In this document: positions 29,240 through 40,699 of the stretch, in pieces
Layout of the letters: every line of letters begins with the position of its first letter
How positions within the stretch are numbered: position 1 is the stretch's first letter
Origin: a virus
UHGV virus genome: UHGV-0177318
Length of the DNA stretch: 47,797 nucleotides
Reading direction: 5' to 3' (one strand)
Position numbers and translations under genes: made by a program
The notes under the pieces: model-generated
Database searches by the model: none
Seen by the model: only the letters and a program-made list of their open reading frames with translations
Told to the model about the DNA's origin: nothing

Positions 29240-29356
29240 ACGCTTAGCCAGCCAGCATTTCTCTTCGTCACCGTATGGATGGCCGCTATTTCTTTGAGGC
29301 GGCCAGTGCTTATATCGCCGCCGTCAGCGCGAAAAGGTTTAGGTGTTGATGGGCAG

Positions 29357-29713
29357 TTAGTCATTCCAGGCCTCCAGCTCGTTCTGAATCTCTTCGTCTA
29401 TTTCGTCGTTGCTGGCCTCTTCATTGAGGTAGCTCAGTGCTTCTTTCCTGTACTGCTCACGACGGCTGCTGTCGTACCAAACTGAGAATTCTGGAGACCA
29501 GCCACGGTCATCGCCGTTTTCAGCAAAAAAATCATGCATTGCGTTGTTATAGGCCAGGCTCTCTACCATGCATTCAGCAGTTGTCAGGGCGCATTCACGG
29601 ATATAGCCGCGGAGATCGCGCTTATTCCACCACGGACTCACCTTCGAATCACAAAGGCCTTTGAACTCAACTTCCCAGCGGCGGATACAGCGTGCATTTA
29701 ATGATTTGCTCAT
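29357..29713 (-). CDS. Hypothetical protein
   Basis: 118 aa with an acidic C-terminus. ATGA coupling to the upstream ORF. Confidence 0.55.
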   Translation of the reverse strand: MSKSLNARCIRRWEVEFKGLCDSKVSPWWNKRDLRGYIRECALTTAECMVESLAYNNAMHDFFAENGDDRGWSPEFSVWYDSSRREQYRKEALSYLNEEASNDEIDEEIQNELEAWND

Positions 29714-29922
29714 GCTGCACCACCTTCGATCGGCTTTATACTGCTCAGAATCAAACGGCGTGATGTCAGCGGTGCGCCGCTTCGGCGGCCATCTTCTTTC
29801 CGGTAAGTTTCAGTGCGACCAACACACCAGGTCGTTGGAGTCTCGCGCAACTGCACGGTTTTCTCGCCATCTTTGGTGATGATGGTTCCGGTATGGGTTT
29901 TTATTTTCTGGTTTATTGCCAT
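29710..29922 (-). CDS. Hypothetical protein
   Basis: 70 aa. SD AAGGGG upstream. Tightly packed in the operon. Confidence 0.5.
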   Translation of the reverse strand: MAINQKIKTHTGTIITKDGEKTVQLRETPTTWCVGRTETYRKEDGRRSGAPLTSRRLILSSIKPIEGGAA

Positions 29923-35255: not shown

Positions 35256-36108
35256 ATTAACGGGTTACGTTTGGGACGCTTGTGCCGCTTCTGGCATGAA
35301 GCTGTCCAGCGTTGCCATCATGGCGCGTCTGGCAGACTTCAGCAGTGATGAAGGGGTTAGCTGGCCTTCCATCGCTACCATCGCGCGCCAGATTGGTGCC
35401 GGTGAGAGCACGGTTCGAACAGCCATATCTCAACTGGAAAAAGACGGGTGGTTAACCCGCCAGCAGCGCCGTAAAGGCAACCGCAATGCATCGAACGTTT
35501 ACCAGCTCAATGTTGCGAAATTACAGGCTGCTGCCTTTTCTCACCTGTCAGATTCTGACGCATCAAAATCTGATGCCTCAAAAACCGACGCGTCAAAATC
35601 TGAGGCATCAAAAAACGATGAAAAAGACGGTTTTCACCCGTCAGAATCTGGGGGGGATCCGTCAGTAAATACAACTACTGATCCATCAGATAAAAAACAT
35701 TCTTGTCCGGTTGCTGCGCAACCCGACCCTGTGGTGGTTATCACCGATCAGGCGAAGCAGGTTTTATCACATCTGAACAAGACCACCGGATCACGGTATC
35801 AGGTCTGCAAATCGTCCTTGGAAAACATCCGGGCTCGCCTGGCTGACGGGTTTACGCCCGATGAGCTGCTGTTGGTGGTGGATTACAGCGTCGAGAAGTG
35901 GGGCGAAGATCTGAAAATGGCCGAATATCTGCGCCCAACAACGTTGTTTTTGCCATCTAAATTCCCAGGTTACCTGCAATCCGCAAATAAGTGGAACGCA
36001 GCAGGACGCCCAGAACGACAGTACTGGGGCTCAATTCGTAAGCATGATCCGATGAAATTTGGTGGGCCAGATAAAGCCATCCCAGCTGGCTTCAGGGGAG
36101 CGAAATGA
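35245..36108 (+). CDS. Replication initiator-like protein (N-terminal wHTH + phage conserved C-terminal domain), O-analogue
   Basis: 287 aa. N-terminal HTH (WPSIATIARQIGAGESTVRTAISQLEKDGWL), a central acidic/Ser repeat encoded by iterons, and a C-terminal DQAKQVLSHLNKTTGSRY...FTPDELLLVVDY domain seen in phage replication proteins. It occupies the lambda O position. Confidence 0.7.
   Translation: MSTKLTGYVWDACAASGMKLSSVAIMARLADFSSDEGVSWPSIATIARQIGAGESTVRTAISQLEKDGWLTRQQRRKGNRNASNVYQLNVAKLQAAAFSHLSDSDASKSDASKTDASKSEASKNDEKDGFHPSESGGDPSVNTTTDPSDKKHSCPVAAQPDPVVVITDQAKQVLSHLNKTTGSRYQVCKSSLENIRARLADGFTPDELLLVVDYSVEKWGEDLKMAEYLRPTTLFLPSKFPGYLQSANKWNAAGRPERQYWGSIRKHDPMKFGGPDKAIPAGFRGAK
35557..35616 (+). 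repeat. Four tandem 15-bp iterons inside the replication gene (candidate ori)
   Basis: GACGCATCAAAATCT / GATGCCTCAAAAACC / GACGCGTCAAAATCT / GAGGCATCAAAAAAC, translated as (S)DASK x4. This is analogous to the ori-lambda iterons inside O. Confidence 0.65.
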
Positions 36109-37004
36109 TGAGCATGAATGCTGATAACAAATATTGCCGCGCGCTGGCTGAACTGCGCTCAAAGCCAGCGCATGAATTGAAAGAAGTTGGCGATCAGTGG
36201 CGCACTCCGGATTTGTTGTTTTGGGGCATCAATTCGATATTTGGGCCGATGGTTCTGGATCTGTTTGCAGACGATAGCAATACTAAATGCCCTGCATGGT
36301 ACACCGCCGAAGATAACGCGCTGACGCAGGACTGGTCAGAGCGTCTGGCAGAACTCGGTGGCGCCGCGTTTGCAAATCCGCCATATAGCCGTTCTCAGTA
36401 CCATGAAAAGCAGGCCATCACTGGCATGACCCACATCATGAATCACACAATGGCGATGCGTGATAAAGGTGGTCGTTACATATACCTCGTGAAGTCAGCC
36501 ACAAGTGAAACATGGTGGCCGGAAGATGCCGATCACATCATGTTTATTCGTGGTCGTATTGGGTTCGATCTTCCTATTTGGTTTGTTCCCGCTGACGAGA
36601 AGCAGCAACCCACCAGCGCATTTTTTGCCGGGGCAATCGCTGTCTTCGACAAAACCTGGCGTGGTGAAAGCTTCAGCTATATCAATCGCACCGAACTGGA
36701 AGAAAAAGGGCGTGCAGCATTGTCATTGGCTCAATTCGCCGCGGCAAAAATGGCCCTTTCGTCGGTGCCGGAAAAAGCAATGCCTACTCCCATTGCAACG
36801 GCTGATGCAGAGTCGCGCATCTGGCCGCTGGAGGTTGGTCTGGTATTCAATCAGGTCAAGGGGGCGGATTCTCTGGGCGTGAACCAACAGAACAAGTTGA
36901 AGGCCAACATCAACCAACTCTGGCTGGAGCGTGTGCCTACCAGCGAAATAATTAGCGTGGCCGGTGGTCTGGTTAGCAGCATGCAGGGGGCCGTCAATGC
37001 GTGA
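36105..37004 (+). CDS. Phage Dam-family N6-adenine DNA methyltransferase
   Basis: 299 aa. WRTPDLLF near the N-terminus and catalytic FANPPYS. Confidence 0.8.
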   Translation: MMSMNADNKYCRALAELRSKPAHELKEVGDQWRTPDLLFWGINSIFGPMVLDLFADDSNTKCPAWYTAEDNALTQDWSERLAELGGAAFANPPYSRSQYHEKQAITGMTHIMNHTMAMRDKGGRYIYLVKSATSETWWPEDADHIMFIRGRIGFDLPIWFVPADEKQQPTSAFFAGAIAVFDKTWRGESFSYINRTELEEKGRAALSLAQFAAAKMALSSVPEKAMPTPIATADAESRIWPLEVGLVFNQVKGADSLGVNQQNKLKANINQLWLERVPTSEIISVAGGLVSSMQGAVNA

Positions 37005-38934
37005 AATCATCGTTGATAACTTTGCCGGTGGTGGCGGCGCGAGTACCGGCATTGAACTGGCCATCGGGCGTAGCGTGGATATCGCTATCAACCACGACGA
37101 AAACGCTATTGCGATGCATAAGACGAATCACCCGGACACGCTGCATTATTGCGAGTCGGTGTTTGACGTTGACCCAAGCGCAGCCACCAGCGGTAAACCT
37201 GTCGGTCTGGCCTGGTTTAGCCCTGACTGTCGCCACTTTTCCAAAGCGAAGGGCGCTAAGCCGGTTAAGAAAGAGATTCGCGGGCTGGCGTGGATTGTCC
37301 TGCGCTGGGCGCTGGCAGTACGTCCCCGCGTCATGATGCTGGAGAACGTCGAAGAATTTAAGACATGGGGACCGCTGCTGGATGAAGAATTACGCCCGGA
37401 TCCTGAGCGTGCAGGTGAAACATTCGAGGCATTTGTCGGCATGTTGTCGACTGGTATCGCGGCGAATCACCCAGCACTGGCTGAGGTTTGTGAATTTCTT
37501 GCCATTGAGCCGCACGGCCAGCAGGCGCAACAGCTGATCGCCGGGCTTGGCTATGAGGTCGATTATCGTGAGCTGCGCGCTTGTGACTACGGCGCGCCGA
37601 CGATCAGAAAGCGTTTCTTCATGGTCATGCGCTGTGACGGCCGCAAGATTCATTGGCCTGAAGCGACTCATGGGGATCCAAAATCACTGGAAGTACAAAG
37701 CGGCAAGCTGGCGCCATGGCGTACCGCGGCGGAGTGCATTGACTGGAATATCCCGGCCCGGTCCATCTTCGACCGCAAAAAGCCGCTGGCGGAAAATACG
37801 CTCAAACGTATCGCACGCGGCATCCAGCGCTTTGTTATCGAAAGCGCATCACCTTTCATCGTGAAGTGTAACCACACCACGACGAAAGGAGGTTATGACT
37901 GTTTCCGCGGGCAATCGTTGTTAGAGCCATTGCAGACCATCACTAAAAAGCATGGCTACGCGCTGGCCGTACCGCATCTTACTAAATTCCGCACCGGGGC
38001 CACCGGGCAGCCAGTGACCGAGCCAGTTCCAACTGTCACCGCTGGTACGTCGGCGCGCCCGGGCGGGAATGGGCATGCGCTTGGCGTAGTTGAGGCCGCC
38101 CTGACACCGTTCCTGGCTGGCAATGGCGGCAGTGAGTACCAGGCAAAGCCGCGCCCACTGGATAAACCCGCTCATACAATCCTCAAGCAGTCCCGCGCGT
38201 GCGTGGTTGCGCCGGTCATCGCCCGCCAGTTTGGCGCCAGTGTTGGGCATAGGGCTGACGAACCTAGCGCAACGATTACTGCAGGTGGTGGCGGTAAGTC
38301 GCAGCTGGTAACTCCAACACTGATCCAGATGGGGTACGGCGAACGCCCAGGGCAAGAACCGCGTGTTCTTCAACTGAATAACCCGCTCGGCACGGTCACT
38401 GCTGGTGGTAATAAGTTTGCAACGGTGAGCGCGTTCCTGGCGAAGCACTATGGTGGGAATTACACGGGGCCGGGTGTTGGTATGGATGAGCCTGCCCACT
38501 CAGTCACTACTGTTGATCATCACGCGGTAGTTGCGTCGCACCTGGTGAAGCTGCGCGGAACCTGCCGCGACGGTCAGACCATGGATACACCTATGCCGAC
38601 GATTACCGCTGGTGGCCAGCATGTTGGTGAGGTCCGGACATTCCTCGAAACCTACTGCGGTGATAGCGAGGATGAATGGCTGGTGACGATCGAGGGGGTT
38701 AAGTACCAGATCGTCGATATCGGAATGCGCATGCTGCAACCGCATGAGCTTTATAAGGCACAGGGCTTCCCTGACGGCTACGTTATCGATCAGGACTATC
38801 GCGGCAATCGTTACGCCAAAGACAAGCAGGTAGCGCGCTGCGGTAACGCAGTACCGCCGCCGTTCGCTCGTGCGCTGGTAGAAGCAAATCTTCCTGAATT
38901 ATGTGCAAATCAAAAGGCGGGTGCAGCCGCCTGA
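36997..38934 (+). CDS. DNA cytosine-5 methyltransferase with a very long repeat-containing target-recognition region
   Basis: The internal start MREIIVDNFAGGGGAS (motif I) overlaps the upstream stop (ATGCGTGA). Motifs: SPDCRHFSKAKG (IV), ENVEEF (VI), APTIRKRFF (VIII), QGFPDGY...GNAVPPP (IX/X). 645 aa. Confidence 0.88.
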   Translation: MREIIVDNFAGGGGASTGIELAIGRSVDIAINHDENAIAMHKTNHPDTLHYCESVFDVDPSAATSGKPVGLAWFSPDCRHFSKAKGAKPVKKEIRGLAWIVLRWALAVRPRVMMLENVEEFKTWGPLLDEELRPDPERAGETFEAFVGMLSTGIAANHPALAEVCEFLAIEPHGQQAQQLIAGLGYEVDYRELRACDYGAPTIRKRFFMVMRCDGRKIHWPEATHGDPKSLEVQSGKLAPWRTAAECIDWNIPARSIFDRKKPLAENTLKRIARGIQRFVIESASPFIVKCNHTTTKGGYDCFRGQSLLEPLQTITKKHGYALAVPHLTKFRTGATGQPVTEPVPTVTAGTSARPGGNGHALGVVEAALTPFLAGNGGSEYQAKPRPLDKPAHTILKQSRACVVAPVIARQFGASVGHRADEPSATITAGGGGKSQLVTPTLIQMGYGERPGQEPRVLQLNNPLGTVTAGGNKFATVSAFLAKHYGGNYTGPGVGMDEPAHSVTTVDHHAVVASHLVKLRGTCRDGQTMDTPMPTITAGGQHVGEVRTFLETYCGDSEDEWLVTIEGVKYQIVDIGMRMLQPHELYKAQGFPDGYVIDQDYRGNRYAKDKQVARCGNAVPPPFARALVEANLPELCANQKAGAAA

Positions 38935-38948
38935 TATGGAGAAATAGC

Positions 38949-39641
38949 ATGAATCAGTTAACCGCAAAGGGTGTTGTGACAATGTCCAGCCGTGAAATTG
39001 CCAGGCTGGTGCAGAGCAAACATGGTGATGTGAAGCGCTCAGCTGAGCGCCTTGCATCTGCTGGTATTTTAACCGCGCCGTTGGCGCACACCCCCTACAC
39101 ACACCCGCAAAACGGGCAAACATACGAGGAGTATTGGTTCAACAAACGTGATTCTCTGGTGATCGTCGCCCGGCTGTCGCCAGAATTTACCGCCGCTGTT
39201 GTCGATCGCTGGCAAGAGCTGGAGAACAGTCAGGCCGTAAGTGTCCCGCAAACATTGCCGGAGGCATTACGTCTCGCCGCGGATCTGGCCGAGCAGAGAG
39301 AACAACTGGCCCAGCAGTTAGCCGCTGCCGCGCCGAAAGTTGAGTTTGTCGATCGGTATTGTACTGCTAAAGGCTCAATGTCTTTCCGCCAGGTGGCAAA
39401 GCTGTTGCAGGCCAAAGAGACCGATTTCCGCTTGTTCCTCATTGAGAGCGGCATTTTGTACCGGCTCAGTGGAGTGCTGACACCGCGGCACCAGCACATT
39501 GCTGCCGGGCGGTTTGAAGTGAAAACTGGTACCACGAGCGAAACAAACTACGCCTTTAGCCAGGCACGTTTTACACCCAAAGGCATCGAGTGGATCGGCG
39601 GCCTGTGGACGGCACACATCGCTAAGGGGCATGCCGCGTGA
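38949..39641 (+). CDS. Antirepressor (Rha N-terminal domain + KilAC/ANT C-terminal domain)
   Basis: 230 aa from MNQLTAKGVVTMSSREIARLVQSKHGDVKRS...VDRWQELE (Rha-type), plus C-terminal FVDRYCTAKGSMSFRQVAKLL (KilAC). SD GGAG. Confidence 0.8.
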   Translation: MNQLTAKGVVTMSSREIARLVQSKHGDVKRSAERLASAGILTAPLAHTPYTHPQNGQTYEEYWFNKRDSLVIVARLSPEFTAAVVDRWQELENSQAVSVPQTLPEALRLAADLAEQREQLAQQLAAAAPKVEFVDRYCTAKGSMSFRQVAKLLQAKETDFRLFLIESGILYRLSGVLTPRHQHIAAGRFEVKTGTTSETNYAFSQARFTPKGIEWIGGLWTAHIAKGHAA

Positions 39642-40699
39642 GAGGACTGTTTACAGCCGAGACTGTTCCGCGCCTTGGCCTGGTAGTGTTAAAGCCGGGC
39701 AGCGAACTGATGTCTCTGTTTCAACAGGGGCGTGTGCTGGTGGAGCCTCAGCCAAAAAGCATGGCTGGGCTTCCGTCGGGCCTCGTCCCTGATGCCAGGC
39801 AGCCGCTGGCAGAAGATAAGTCCCTCGAGGAATTCTTCACCGACGAGAGAGTAATCCGTGCTGCAGGCGGTTTGACCGCGTTGGAATCCTGGTTAGAACG
39901 TAACGTGAAGGAATGCCAGTACCCGCACACTGATTATCACCATCATGAGCTGGTAACGATGCGACATCCCCCTGGATCAATGTTGCTCTGTTGGCATTGC
40001 GATAACCAGCTGCGCGAGCAAACCACCGCGGCGCTGGCAGAACTGGCCCGGCGTAATCTCATTAACTGGCTGATCAGTTCCATCCTGTCTTCGCTTGGCT
40101 ACAACAACGAGCGTGAACTATCCCTCGGTGAATTGTGCTGGTGGGCTGTTTATTCAGGCATTGCTGATGCAATCACGGAAAGGATGGCCCAGCTTGCGCT
40201 TCGATTACCGGATGAGCCGTTTTTATCCGTATATCGAGAAAGTGACATTGTGCCGATGCCCCCGGCAAAAAGCATTTTGCAGAAGAAGGTCACCCCTGCG
40301 GTCACGGCTGCGAAATTAAATCATGGAGCAAATCAGGAAGTAGCATATGAACTGCCAAAGGTTCTGGCTCTGCATGCGGATCCTGAATCCCCTGAATCAT
40401 TCATGTTGCGCCCAAAACACCGCAGGTGGGTGAATGAGGAATATACCCGGTGGGTTAAAACCCAGCCCTGTGAAGCTTGCCGGCGGCCAGCGGATGATCC
40501 ACACCATGTCATTGGTCACGGCATGGGCGGTACCGCCACTAAAGCCCACGATTTGTTTGTGATCCCTCTGTGCAGAGAGTGTCATGACAAATTACATGCT
40601 GATGTTGCAGCGTTCGAGAAAAAGCACGGTACCCAGCTGGAGCTGCTATTCCGGTTTATGAATCGAGCGCTGGCGATCGGCGTAATAACAAAAGCGTAA
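39638..40699 (+). CDS. DUF968-family protein (YdfU-like)
   Basis: 353 aa with a GTG start overlapping the upstream stop. The C-terminal Cys/His cluster CEACRRPADDPHHV...PLCRECHDKLH is typical of DUF968. It is followed by Q, as in the Qin prophage (ydfU-quuQ). Confidence 0.65.
   Translation: MRGLFTAETVPRLGLVVLKPGSELMSLFQQGRVLVEPQPKSMAGLPSGLVPDARQPLAEDKSLEEFFTDERVIRAAGGLTALESWLERNVKECQYPHTDYHHHELVTMRHPPGSMLLCWHCDNQLREQTTAALAELARRNLINWLISSILSSLGYNNERELSLGELCWWAVYSGIADAITERMAQLALRLPDEPFLSVYRESDIVPMPPAKSILQKKVTPAVTAAKLNHGANQEVAYELPKVLALHADPESPESFMLRPKHRRWVNEEYTRWVKTQPCEACRRPADDPHHVIGHGMGGTATKAHDLFVIPLCRECHDKLHADVAAFEKKHGTQLELLFRFMNRALAIGVITKA

Follow-up and report, generated by a model that had tools for sequence, protein, structure and literature searches.

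The use of several target recognition domains (TRDs) in tandem by a single carbon-5 (C5) DNA cytosine methyltransferase has the standing of a textbook curiosity, the known cases being a few Bacillus phage enzymes that have two to four specificities. In the literature searched, tandem-TRD multispecific C5 enzymes are restricted to Bacillus phages and prophages (SPR, phi3T, rho11s, H2, SPbeta, BssHII, and M.BceSV), among which M.BceSV recognizes GGCC, GCNGC, CCGG, and GGNCC, and no such array was found there for phages of Gram-negative bacteria or for anything else outside Bacillus. Here we describe a C5 methyltransferase gene in the virus genome UHGV-0177318, a stretch of 47,797 nucleotides (nt) that will be referred to as the window, in which an earlier note had seen about seven tandem TRD-like repeats and a possible multispecific enzyme. 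Our analysis shows that the variable region of the 645-amino-acid (aa) product is built from seven different modules in tandem, each conserved in its own right and resembling TRD cores, and that it evolves one module at a time. We further propose, with a probability of roughly 55%, that several of these modules act as alternative DNA readers, which would make the protein a multispecific orphan C5 enzyme for anti-restriction; the number of specificities is more likely to be two to five rather than seven.

Multispecific and Monospecific C5 Methyltransferases

When the genes of the SPR, phi3T, rho11s, and H2 enzymes were read, each block of their variable regions was found to contain a single core of the form (S)PT[IL]T, HTLS, or EPAFTV, after which come a short loop and a hydrophobic strand. 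One block, ...EPAFTVNTIDRHGVA[IV]GEYPKY, is common to all four and adjoins motif IX, and because these enzymes also share GGCC specificity, it is their GGCC domain. The Bacillus multispecific enzymes (M.SPRI, M.Phi3TI, M.Rho11sI, M.H2I, M.SPBetaI, M.BceSV, and M.BssHII/phiBssHII) resemble the protein encoded in the window (hereafter the query) in being phage-encoded orphan C5 enzymes with an expanded region between motifs VIII and IX, in their case owing to contiguous TRDs, each of which has one T-[LIV] core and, behind it, a loop and a hydrophobic strand. Their last module adjoins motif IX, where it aligns with the terminal unit of the query's family, and the order of modules is conserved between enzymes. 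The logic of the query appears to be the same, and what differs is the lineage of the catalytic core, the regular repeat of ~33 aa whose units share the connector G-x3-G-x3-[DE]-x-P, the far larger number of modules (seven in the query and as many as 12 in other family members, compared to two to four cores in the Bacillus enzymes), and a very wide distribution, the hosts being Proteobacteria, Myxococcus, and cyanobacteria.

M.HhaI and M.HaeIII, monospecific enzymes with solved complexes, share the catalytic fold and the order of motifs with the query but possess one TRD of ~80–100 aa in place of the seven units. Their recognition elements, ITLSAYGGG in HhaI and EPAFTVQASG in HaeIII, consist of a T-L or T-V followed by a glycine-rich loop, and T-I-T-A-G-G-G-G and P-A-H-S-V-T-T, found in the leading parts (heads) of units, resemble them. 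The closest solved structure, which is also the best PDB sequence match for the core, is 3g7u, a putative DNA modification methyltransferase borne by the Escherichia coli prophage CP-933R. It is 376 aa long and aligns over only ~260 columns, and its one variable region is of the ordinary kind, lacking a repeat array.

A Regular Array of Seven Units

The array spans aa 310–557 (~248 aa) and consists of exactly seven units of 30–41 residues, with the consensus [DE]-x-P-x-x-T-[IV]-T, loop, hydrophobic strand, and G-x3-G, and every one of the seven contains P-x-x-[TS]-[IV]-[TL]. A module of ~33 aa is made of a head (P-x-x-T-[IV]-T and a variable loop of 4–15 residues), two short hydrophobic strands, and a glycine-rich connector, and the family consensus unit, LDEPLPTVTAGGNHHALVAAFLAKYYGGRDGQE, is 33 aa long. 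The seven units are given below with their scores against a hidden Markov model (HMM) of the unit, together with the stretch that follows the last of them; H numbers are head families, obtained by the clustering described in the next section.

37924..38013, + strand: unit 1, aa 310–339, head PLQTITKKHGYALA (H11), tail VPHLTKFRTGATGQP; 35 bits
38014..38136, + strand: unit 2, aa 340–380, long-loop head PVPTVTAGTSARPGGNGHALGVV (H13, 20 members); 15 bits
38158..38250, + strand: unit 3, aa 388–418, head PAHTILKQSRACVV (rare family H37), tail APVIARQFGASVGH; 20 bits
38254..38358, + strand: unit 4, aa 420–454, head PSATITAGGGGKSQLV (H7), tail TPTLIQMGYGERPGQE; 38 bits
38374..38472, + strand: unit 5, aa 460–492, head PLGTVTAGGNKFATV (H14), tail SAFLAKHYGGNYTGP; 39 bits
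38482..38577, + strand: unit 6, aa 496–527, head PAHSVTTVDHHAVV (H1, the largest family), tail ASHLVKLRGTCRDGQ; 45 bits
38581..38667, + strand: unit 7, aa 529–557, head PMPTITAGGQHVGEV (H2), the near-constant array-closing unit; 25 bits
38668..38781, + strand: terminal-unit remnant (…DEWLVTIEGVKYQIVDIGMRML) joined to motif IX (QPHELYKAQGFPDGY); lacks the P-x-x-T-x-T-x-KDR head

Repetition in this region is well above chance. In a dot-plot statistic over aa 300–560, 76 off-diagonal windows of 12 residues scored at least 22 with BLOSUM62, compared to 5.3 ± 3.9 in 300 shuffles (maximum 21). The unit HMM, for which 962 units were taken from proteins sharing at most ~60% identity with the query, with the query and its close relatives excluded, independently finds exactly seven units at 15–45 bits, whereas the highest score among 200 shuffled arrays was 2.9 bits. 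The repetition and the count of seven that the earlier note had claimed are thus borne out. The seven strings that it quoted are likewise all present (aa 310–328, 342–373, 390–413, 422–448, 462–486, 498–521, and 531–555; nt 37924–38661), and each unit carries the T-[IV] signature that it had taken as the mark of a TRD, the TRD blocks of the Bacillus multispecific enzymes also holding one such core each. Its figure of about 250 aa between motifs VIII and IX has to be corrected to ~380 aa, a distance that includes a conserved non-repeat segment of ~100 aa (209–309).

Pairwise identity among the seven units is 16–38%, and repetition at the DNA level is almost absent, being limited to the codons of P-x-x-T-[IV]-T-A-G-G, which rules out recent duplication as the origin of the units. 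Counterparts of each query unit are found, at 60–90% identity, in proteins that are only ~50% identical overall.

Evolution of the Array Unit by Unit

For comparison across the family, each unit was split into a head (PxxTxT, the loop, and the first strand) and a tail (the second strand and the G-rich connector). Clustering of 739 units resulted in 64 head families and 119 tail families, and the pairing of heads with tails turned out to be almost free, the exceptions being H2 with T1, which form the near-constant last unit, and H3 with T2. The seven heads of the query belong to seven different families (H11, H13, H37, H7, H14, H1, and H2). Such non-redundancy is general, in that 151 proteins contain 20 same-family head pairs inside one protein, whereas random assortment gave 80 ± 8.6 such pairs and never fewer than 54 in 2000 shuffles.

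Change by whole units can be followed among close homologues. The lengths of 120 homologues that are 78–99% identical are stepped, from 605 to 695 aa with 6–9 motifs, and insertions or deletions among homologues at least 78% identical comprise exactly one unit, in register, with junctions lying within the hydrophobic strand after the loop. Loop 3 is exactly deleted in P0026, loop 4 in P0079, and loop 5 in P0037, P0067, and P0072, while P0002 and others carry an additional 35-aa unit, PLQTLTTKADSAMV, inside unit 6, which is the insertion site in close homologues, and P0036 and P0043 have acquired a different additional unit, PAHTVTTGNHHAVV. Replacement is also seen, as the head of unit 5 in P0017 is swapped for an H3-type head, PLGTVVAGGSKHAVV. 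These single-unit variants are otherwise more than 90% identical to the query, and in terms of sequence they are the evolutionary analogue of deleting single units. An insertion of another kind, 17 aa long (e.g., HFAVDGYDEQRAQQALE), lies within unit 7 between loop and tail (~38640–38650) in P0017, P0036, P0043, and P0048, and is not a repeat unit.

In the 120 close homologues, identity to the query amounts to 90–99% in the array units, 87% in the catalytic domain, and 82% at the C-terminus. The array units are thus under stronger constraint than the catalytic core, which argues that they are neither a spacer nor a drifting linker.

Two other descriptions of the array were considered and set aside. 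Free shuffling of cassettes is ruled out as stated by the mostly colinear order of the heads, and an ordered super-array with presence or absence of units and some rearrangement describes these sequences better. Two-unit modules as the true TRDs were suggested by the recurring unit-type pairs 3→2, 5→8, and 10→1, an idea that is weakened by variants in which the loop of one unit is fused to the tail of the next, and by the free recombination of heads and tails.

Relation of the Units to Known Recognition Domains

The best BLASTP match between the query and M.SPRI pairs unit 6, EPAHSVTTVDHHAVVASHLVKLR, with the last SPR TRD, EPAFTVNTIDRHGVAVGEYPKYR (EPAFTVNTIDRHGVAVG), at an expect value (E) of 0.009. 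The remaining similarity is short and local (motif VIII, E 0.04) and does not place the two proteins in the same lineage, so that the architecture is analogous or very distantly related to that of M.SPRI and the query is not a member of the M.SPRI sequence family. The usual array-ending unit in the query's family reads EPLxTVTTKDRxGLVTVxGxxYxIVDIGMRML, and the intact terminal unit of P0084 (TTNDRFGLV), together with motif IX, aligns with the last SPR TRD and motif IX at E 2e-4. HMMs of individual unit types, searched against the Bacillus enzymes, matched mostly TRD cores, including all of the lowest-E matches, at weak per-sequence E values of 7e-4 to 0.07, and the generic unit HMM also fell mostly on TRD cores at non-significant values of 0.1–2. 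Homology of the units to true TRDs is therefore plausible and positionally consistent, and statistically not secure.

The C5 Methyltransferase Gene and Its Catalytic Core

The open reading frame (ORF) that contains the array is listed as 36964–38934 on the + strand, and its likely start is the ATG at 36997, a few bases 5′ of which lies a G-rich stretch; this start gives the 645-aa product. The product belongs to the C5 DNA cytosine methyltransferases by its score against Pfam PF00145 (74 bits, cut-off 22). Its score against TIGR00675 is 53 bits, below the cut-off of 100.65, because the repeat array interrupts the match to the profile. Both of its PHROG matches, 23072 and 116, are described as “DNA methyltransferase,” and genes annotated as methyltransferases in the Escherichia phages Flotzy and Eeyore share 98–99% identity with the gene. 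The allele is present in 13 of 5,426 complete E. coli genomes. Motifs I, IV, VI, VIII, IX (QGFPDGY, aa 589–595), and X of the C5 enzymes are all present in canonical order, at positions that do not vary among 115 relatives, and the features outside the array are as follows, the motifs having been located in the translation.

36997..38934, + strand: gene for the C5 DNA cytosine methyltransferase, 645 aa, from the ORF list
37015..37038, + strand: motif I DNFAGGGG, aa 7–14, S-adenosylmethionine binding, FxGxG type; G11, G13, and G14 invariant in 115 family members
37219..37242, + strand: motif IV SPDCRHFS with the catalytic Cys78 (SPDC, aa 75–78); P76 and C78 invariant in 115 relatives
37342..37350, + strand: motif VI ENV, aa 116–118; invariant in 115 sequences
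37594..37620, + strand: motif VIII APTIRKRFF, aa 200–208 (TIRKR, 202–206); T202, R204, and R206 invariant in 115 relatives
37621..37923, + strand: conserved non-repeat segment, aa 209–309, with PWRTAAECIDW and a long helix at aa 266–281; many columns near-invariant, predicted local distance difference test (pLDDT) score ~90 up to about residue 285
38842..38862, + strand: motif X GNAVPPP, aa 616–622; N617 invariant in 115 relatives

Motif VIII aligns with the QxRxR region of 3g7u. A Foldseek search of the model against the PDB returned 3g7u, DNMT1, M.HaeIII, and M.HhaI at E 1e-8 to 1e-12, covering the catalytic core only (~260 columns), so that the modelled catalytic domain has the methyltransferase fold. 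By its motifs, profile score, and modelled core, the product is a C5 cytosine methyltransferase that appears intact. A fragment-based, unit-wise alignment (A3) was left unused, as MAFFT had placed fragments of the terminal unit on unit 2 rather than on unit 7.

Distribution of the Family

A HMMER search against 1.84 billion representatives retrieved 8,619 relatives, 2,589 of them at E < 1e-30, where each relative stands for a cluster at 50% identity. The best 150 relatives range from 403 to 1,113 aa in length and contain 1–12 units per protein, with a mode of 6–7. When the array alone was used in tblastn, 109 phage records were matched, mostly phages of Pseudomonas, Vibrio, Aeromonas, Rhizobium, Ralstonia, and Burkholderia, and members of the family are also carried by phages of Pectobacterium, Myxococcus, and enterobacteria. 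Named examples include gp10 of Pseudomonas phage F116, which has nine units and is flanked by two genes annotated as DNA adenine methyltransferase, forming a three-gene methyltransferase cluster, gp21 of ZF40, with eight units and preceded by a “putative methylase” gene, and p21 of Mx4, with six units. As a negative control, E. coli Dcm, an enzyme of one specificity, gave no match to the unit HMM.

The longest relatives (938–1,113 aa; P0131, P0189, P0209, P0198, P0221, and P0215) owe an insertion at about residues 78–98, at or beside the motif IV SPDC, to an intein Hint domain, and in three of the six (P0189, P0209, and P0198) the intein contains a LAGLIDADG homing endonuclease. Another observation concerns KY197768.1, labelled Bacillus phage phi105, in which tblastn with the array finds a match at 29317–29757 (38% identity, 95% coverage) where no feature is annotated. 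The Bacillus label comes as a surprise, since all other hosts of the family are Gram-negative.

Genomic Neighborhood

The window as a whole is a lambdoid phage, with the C5 gene and an adjacent adenine methyltransferase gene lying in the delayed-early replication/nin region. A gene for a replication-initiation protein is also among the neighbors, and neither a nuclease gene nor a cognate restriction gene adjoins the C5 gene, which therefore encodes an orphan enzyme.

36105..37004, + strand: phage Dam-type N6-adenine methyltransferase gene, upstream of the C5 gene; PF05869 at 8.7e-45, TIGR01712 equivalog at 206 bits
38901–39641: Ant/KilAC antirepressor (ant-like) gene, downstream; 34-nt overlap with the end of the C5 gene
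39638–40699 and 40700–41413: DUF968 protein and Q-type antiterminator genes, after the ant-like gene

The end of the Dam-type gene, with its stop codon, overlaps the start of the C5 gene, with its ATG, by 8 nt (36997–37004, ATGCGTGA), which suggests translational coupling of the two methyltransferases. The C5 gene of Flotzy is 98.6% identical, yet its upstream neighbor there is not a Dam-type methyltransferase gene but encodes a 444-aa protein annotated as phosphoadenosine phosphosulfate (PAPS) reductase (L001:4674–6008), and therefore the slot ahead of the C5 gene is itself mosaic. The G+C content of 37001–40000, which covers the methyltransferase and ant region, is 0.56–0.58, compared to 0.50–0.53 upstream and 0.48–0.52 downstream, a difference consistent with a horizontally exchanged module.

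Proposed Mechanism and Alternative Explanations

If several modules are readers, one catalytic core would be shared by all of them, and the module whose loop fits the major groove would dock beside the flipped cytosine, in the manner of the single TRD of M.HhaI or M.HaeIII. Several unrelated short sequences would in this way be methylated by one enzyme, and phage DNA from lytic growth would be shielded in advance from a number of Type II restriction systems that later hosts may have. The repertoire would change by in-register recombination in the conserved strand after each loop, by which one loop is added, removed, or swapped. The tandem-TRD reading of the earlier note draws support from the reality of the units, their evolution one at a time, their non-redundancy, and the constraint on them, but it has to be narrowed in that not all seven look like free cassettes.

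A number of observations weigh against several modules serving as readers. The likeness to the Bacillus TRDs is at the motif level only, with pairwise E values of 1e-2 to 1e-4, and profiles of 126 diverse units and of 63 H1-type units retrieved no C5 TRD (HhaI or HaeIII) from the PDB sequences, giving chance matches at E 0.25–0.36. Units of 30–41 aa are at or below the size of the experimentally delimited Bacillus TRDs. Methylation data for members of the family were not found in the literature searched. The model leaves unexplained how seven modules reach one catalytic cleft, and many E. coli strains have McrBC, McrA, and Mrr, which attack DNA heavily marked with 5-methylcytosine (5mC), at a cost to such a phage. 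The lineage of the query has lost the head of the canonical terminal unit adjoining motif IX, a head kept in 88 of 135 family representatives and in 2 of 121 close homologues. Instead of reading DNA independently, the last unit (H2) may serve as scaffold, as may some of the others: head family H2 accounts for 72 of the 739 clustered units at a mean relative position of 0.97, and full-unit type 1, which contains unit 7, occurs in 85 of 151 proteins, 83 of which end their arrays with it. In the AlphaFold2 model from a diverse alignment (A1, 115 sequences), the core exceeds a pLDDT of 90 and the array stays at 30–60, with one or two short strands per unit, and in the model from close homologues (A5, 133 sequences), the array falls to 22–35 without secondary structure. 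A regular, confidently predicted repeat fold is thus absent from both models, although a failed prediction is weak evidence.

The main rival, which we regard as rather improbable, is that the enzyme has a single specificity and that the seven units form one open-ended β-rich repeat domain, e.g., a hairpin stack. Such a domain would act as a non-specific DNA clamp or tracking device, as a spacer, or in partner binding, and the target would be read by one unit or by the motif IX remnant. Several features of the order of units agree with it. Head families tend to keep to certain positions, and their order is conserved for the most part, as in positional orthology (majority fraction of pairwise order 0.846, versus 0.617 for random order), H2 is nearly constant at the array end, and unit types 3 then 2 (units 4–5 here) recur as a block 34 times, compared to 3.6 expected. 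A position-specific structural repeat domain would give similar statistics of order and constancy, and the depletion of duplicate families would also be expected under positional orthology; the failure of every unit profile to match a solved TRD points the same way. On the other hand, ~15% of the order relations are violated, and colinear order is not decisive in itself because the Bacillus enzymes also keep the order of their modules. Differences of a whole unit or loop between proteins more than 90% identical, and a range of 1–12 units, are hard to fit to one cooperative domain, and the presence of 6–9 units among proteins at least 78% identical departs from the fixed or slowly changing unit number of a solenoid or propeller. 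Moreover, the residues conserved at 90% or more in the units are P, T, and G rather than core hydrophobics, and the Thr is placed in T-[IVL], as is typical of a TRD. AlphaFold usually recognizes regular solenoids, and the lack of a confident regular fold in the models mildly argues against a solenoid, while it fits flexible beads that would become ordered only on DNA. As the earlier note had also allowed, the array may be a “repeat-built DNA-reading module.”

Two further explanations appear considerably less probable. One of them, to which we attach little weight, is a relaxed or very short specificity, in which the loops would add weak contacts and the result would be degenerate, near-global 5mC. 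Phage and prophage orphan methyltransferases of very low specificity are known (M.EcoGII, and Mom, both cited in a review), and the second methyltransferase gene next to the query, like the three side by side in F116, suggests heavy overall marking; yet there are 64 discrete, conserved head families that are non-redundant within proteins, as if each loop had its own selected function, and a near-nonspecific C5 enzyme built in this way was not found in the literature searched. Equally improbable in our view is that most of the units are relics, with one or two of them active and the rest silent “pseudo-TRDs” serving as raw material for recombination. Pseudo-domains have reportedly been described in some Bacillus phage enzymes (Lange et al., 1991), rho11s and H2 have four T-[LI] cores each, more than the specificities known for them, and the query lineage has already lost its terminal-unit head. 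Silent relics should drift, however, and every unit is conserved in the 120 close homologues at a level above the catalytic domain, with conserved counterparts in distant proteins.

Implications

In its strongest form, the proposal that several modules act as alternative readers would mean that the phages of Proteobacteria and other non-Bacillus hosts contain an undescribed “hyper-multispecific” family, in which at least 60 exchangeable mini-TRDs of ~33 aa, up to 12 per enzyme, each have a target of their own and the query alone methylates at least five motifs. We consider this extended form unlikely. If it were true, such an enzyme would address more motifs than any characterized DNA methyltransferase, and the loop families would amount to a readable code from peptide cassette to DNA sequence. 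Even short of that, if the arrays work in the way of the Bacillus tandem TRDs, a strategy so far regarded as a curiosity would be widespread, with 2,589 clusters at 50% identity, and would operate at a much larger scale per enzyme. Methyltransferase engineering would have at its disposal a naturally occurring set of very small DNA-reading cassettes that can be moved between enzymes, and the arrays would account for some of the 5mC motifs that have no explanation in methylomes and metagenomes. For the temperate phages that carry them, the arrays would represent a major overlooked route of restriction escape.

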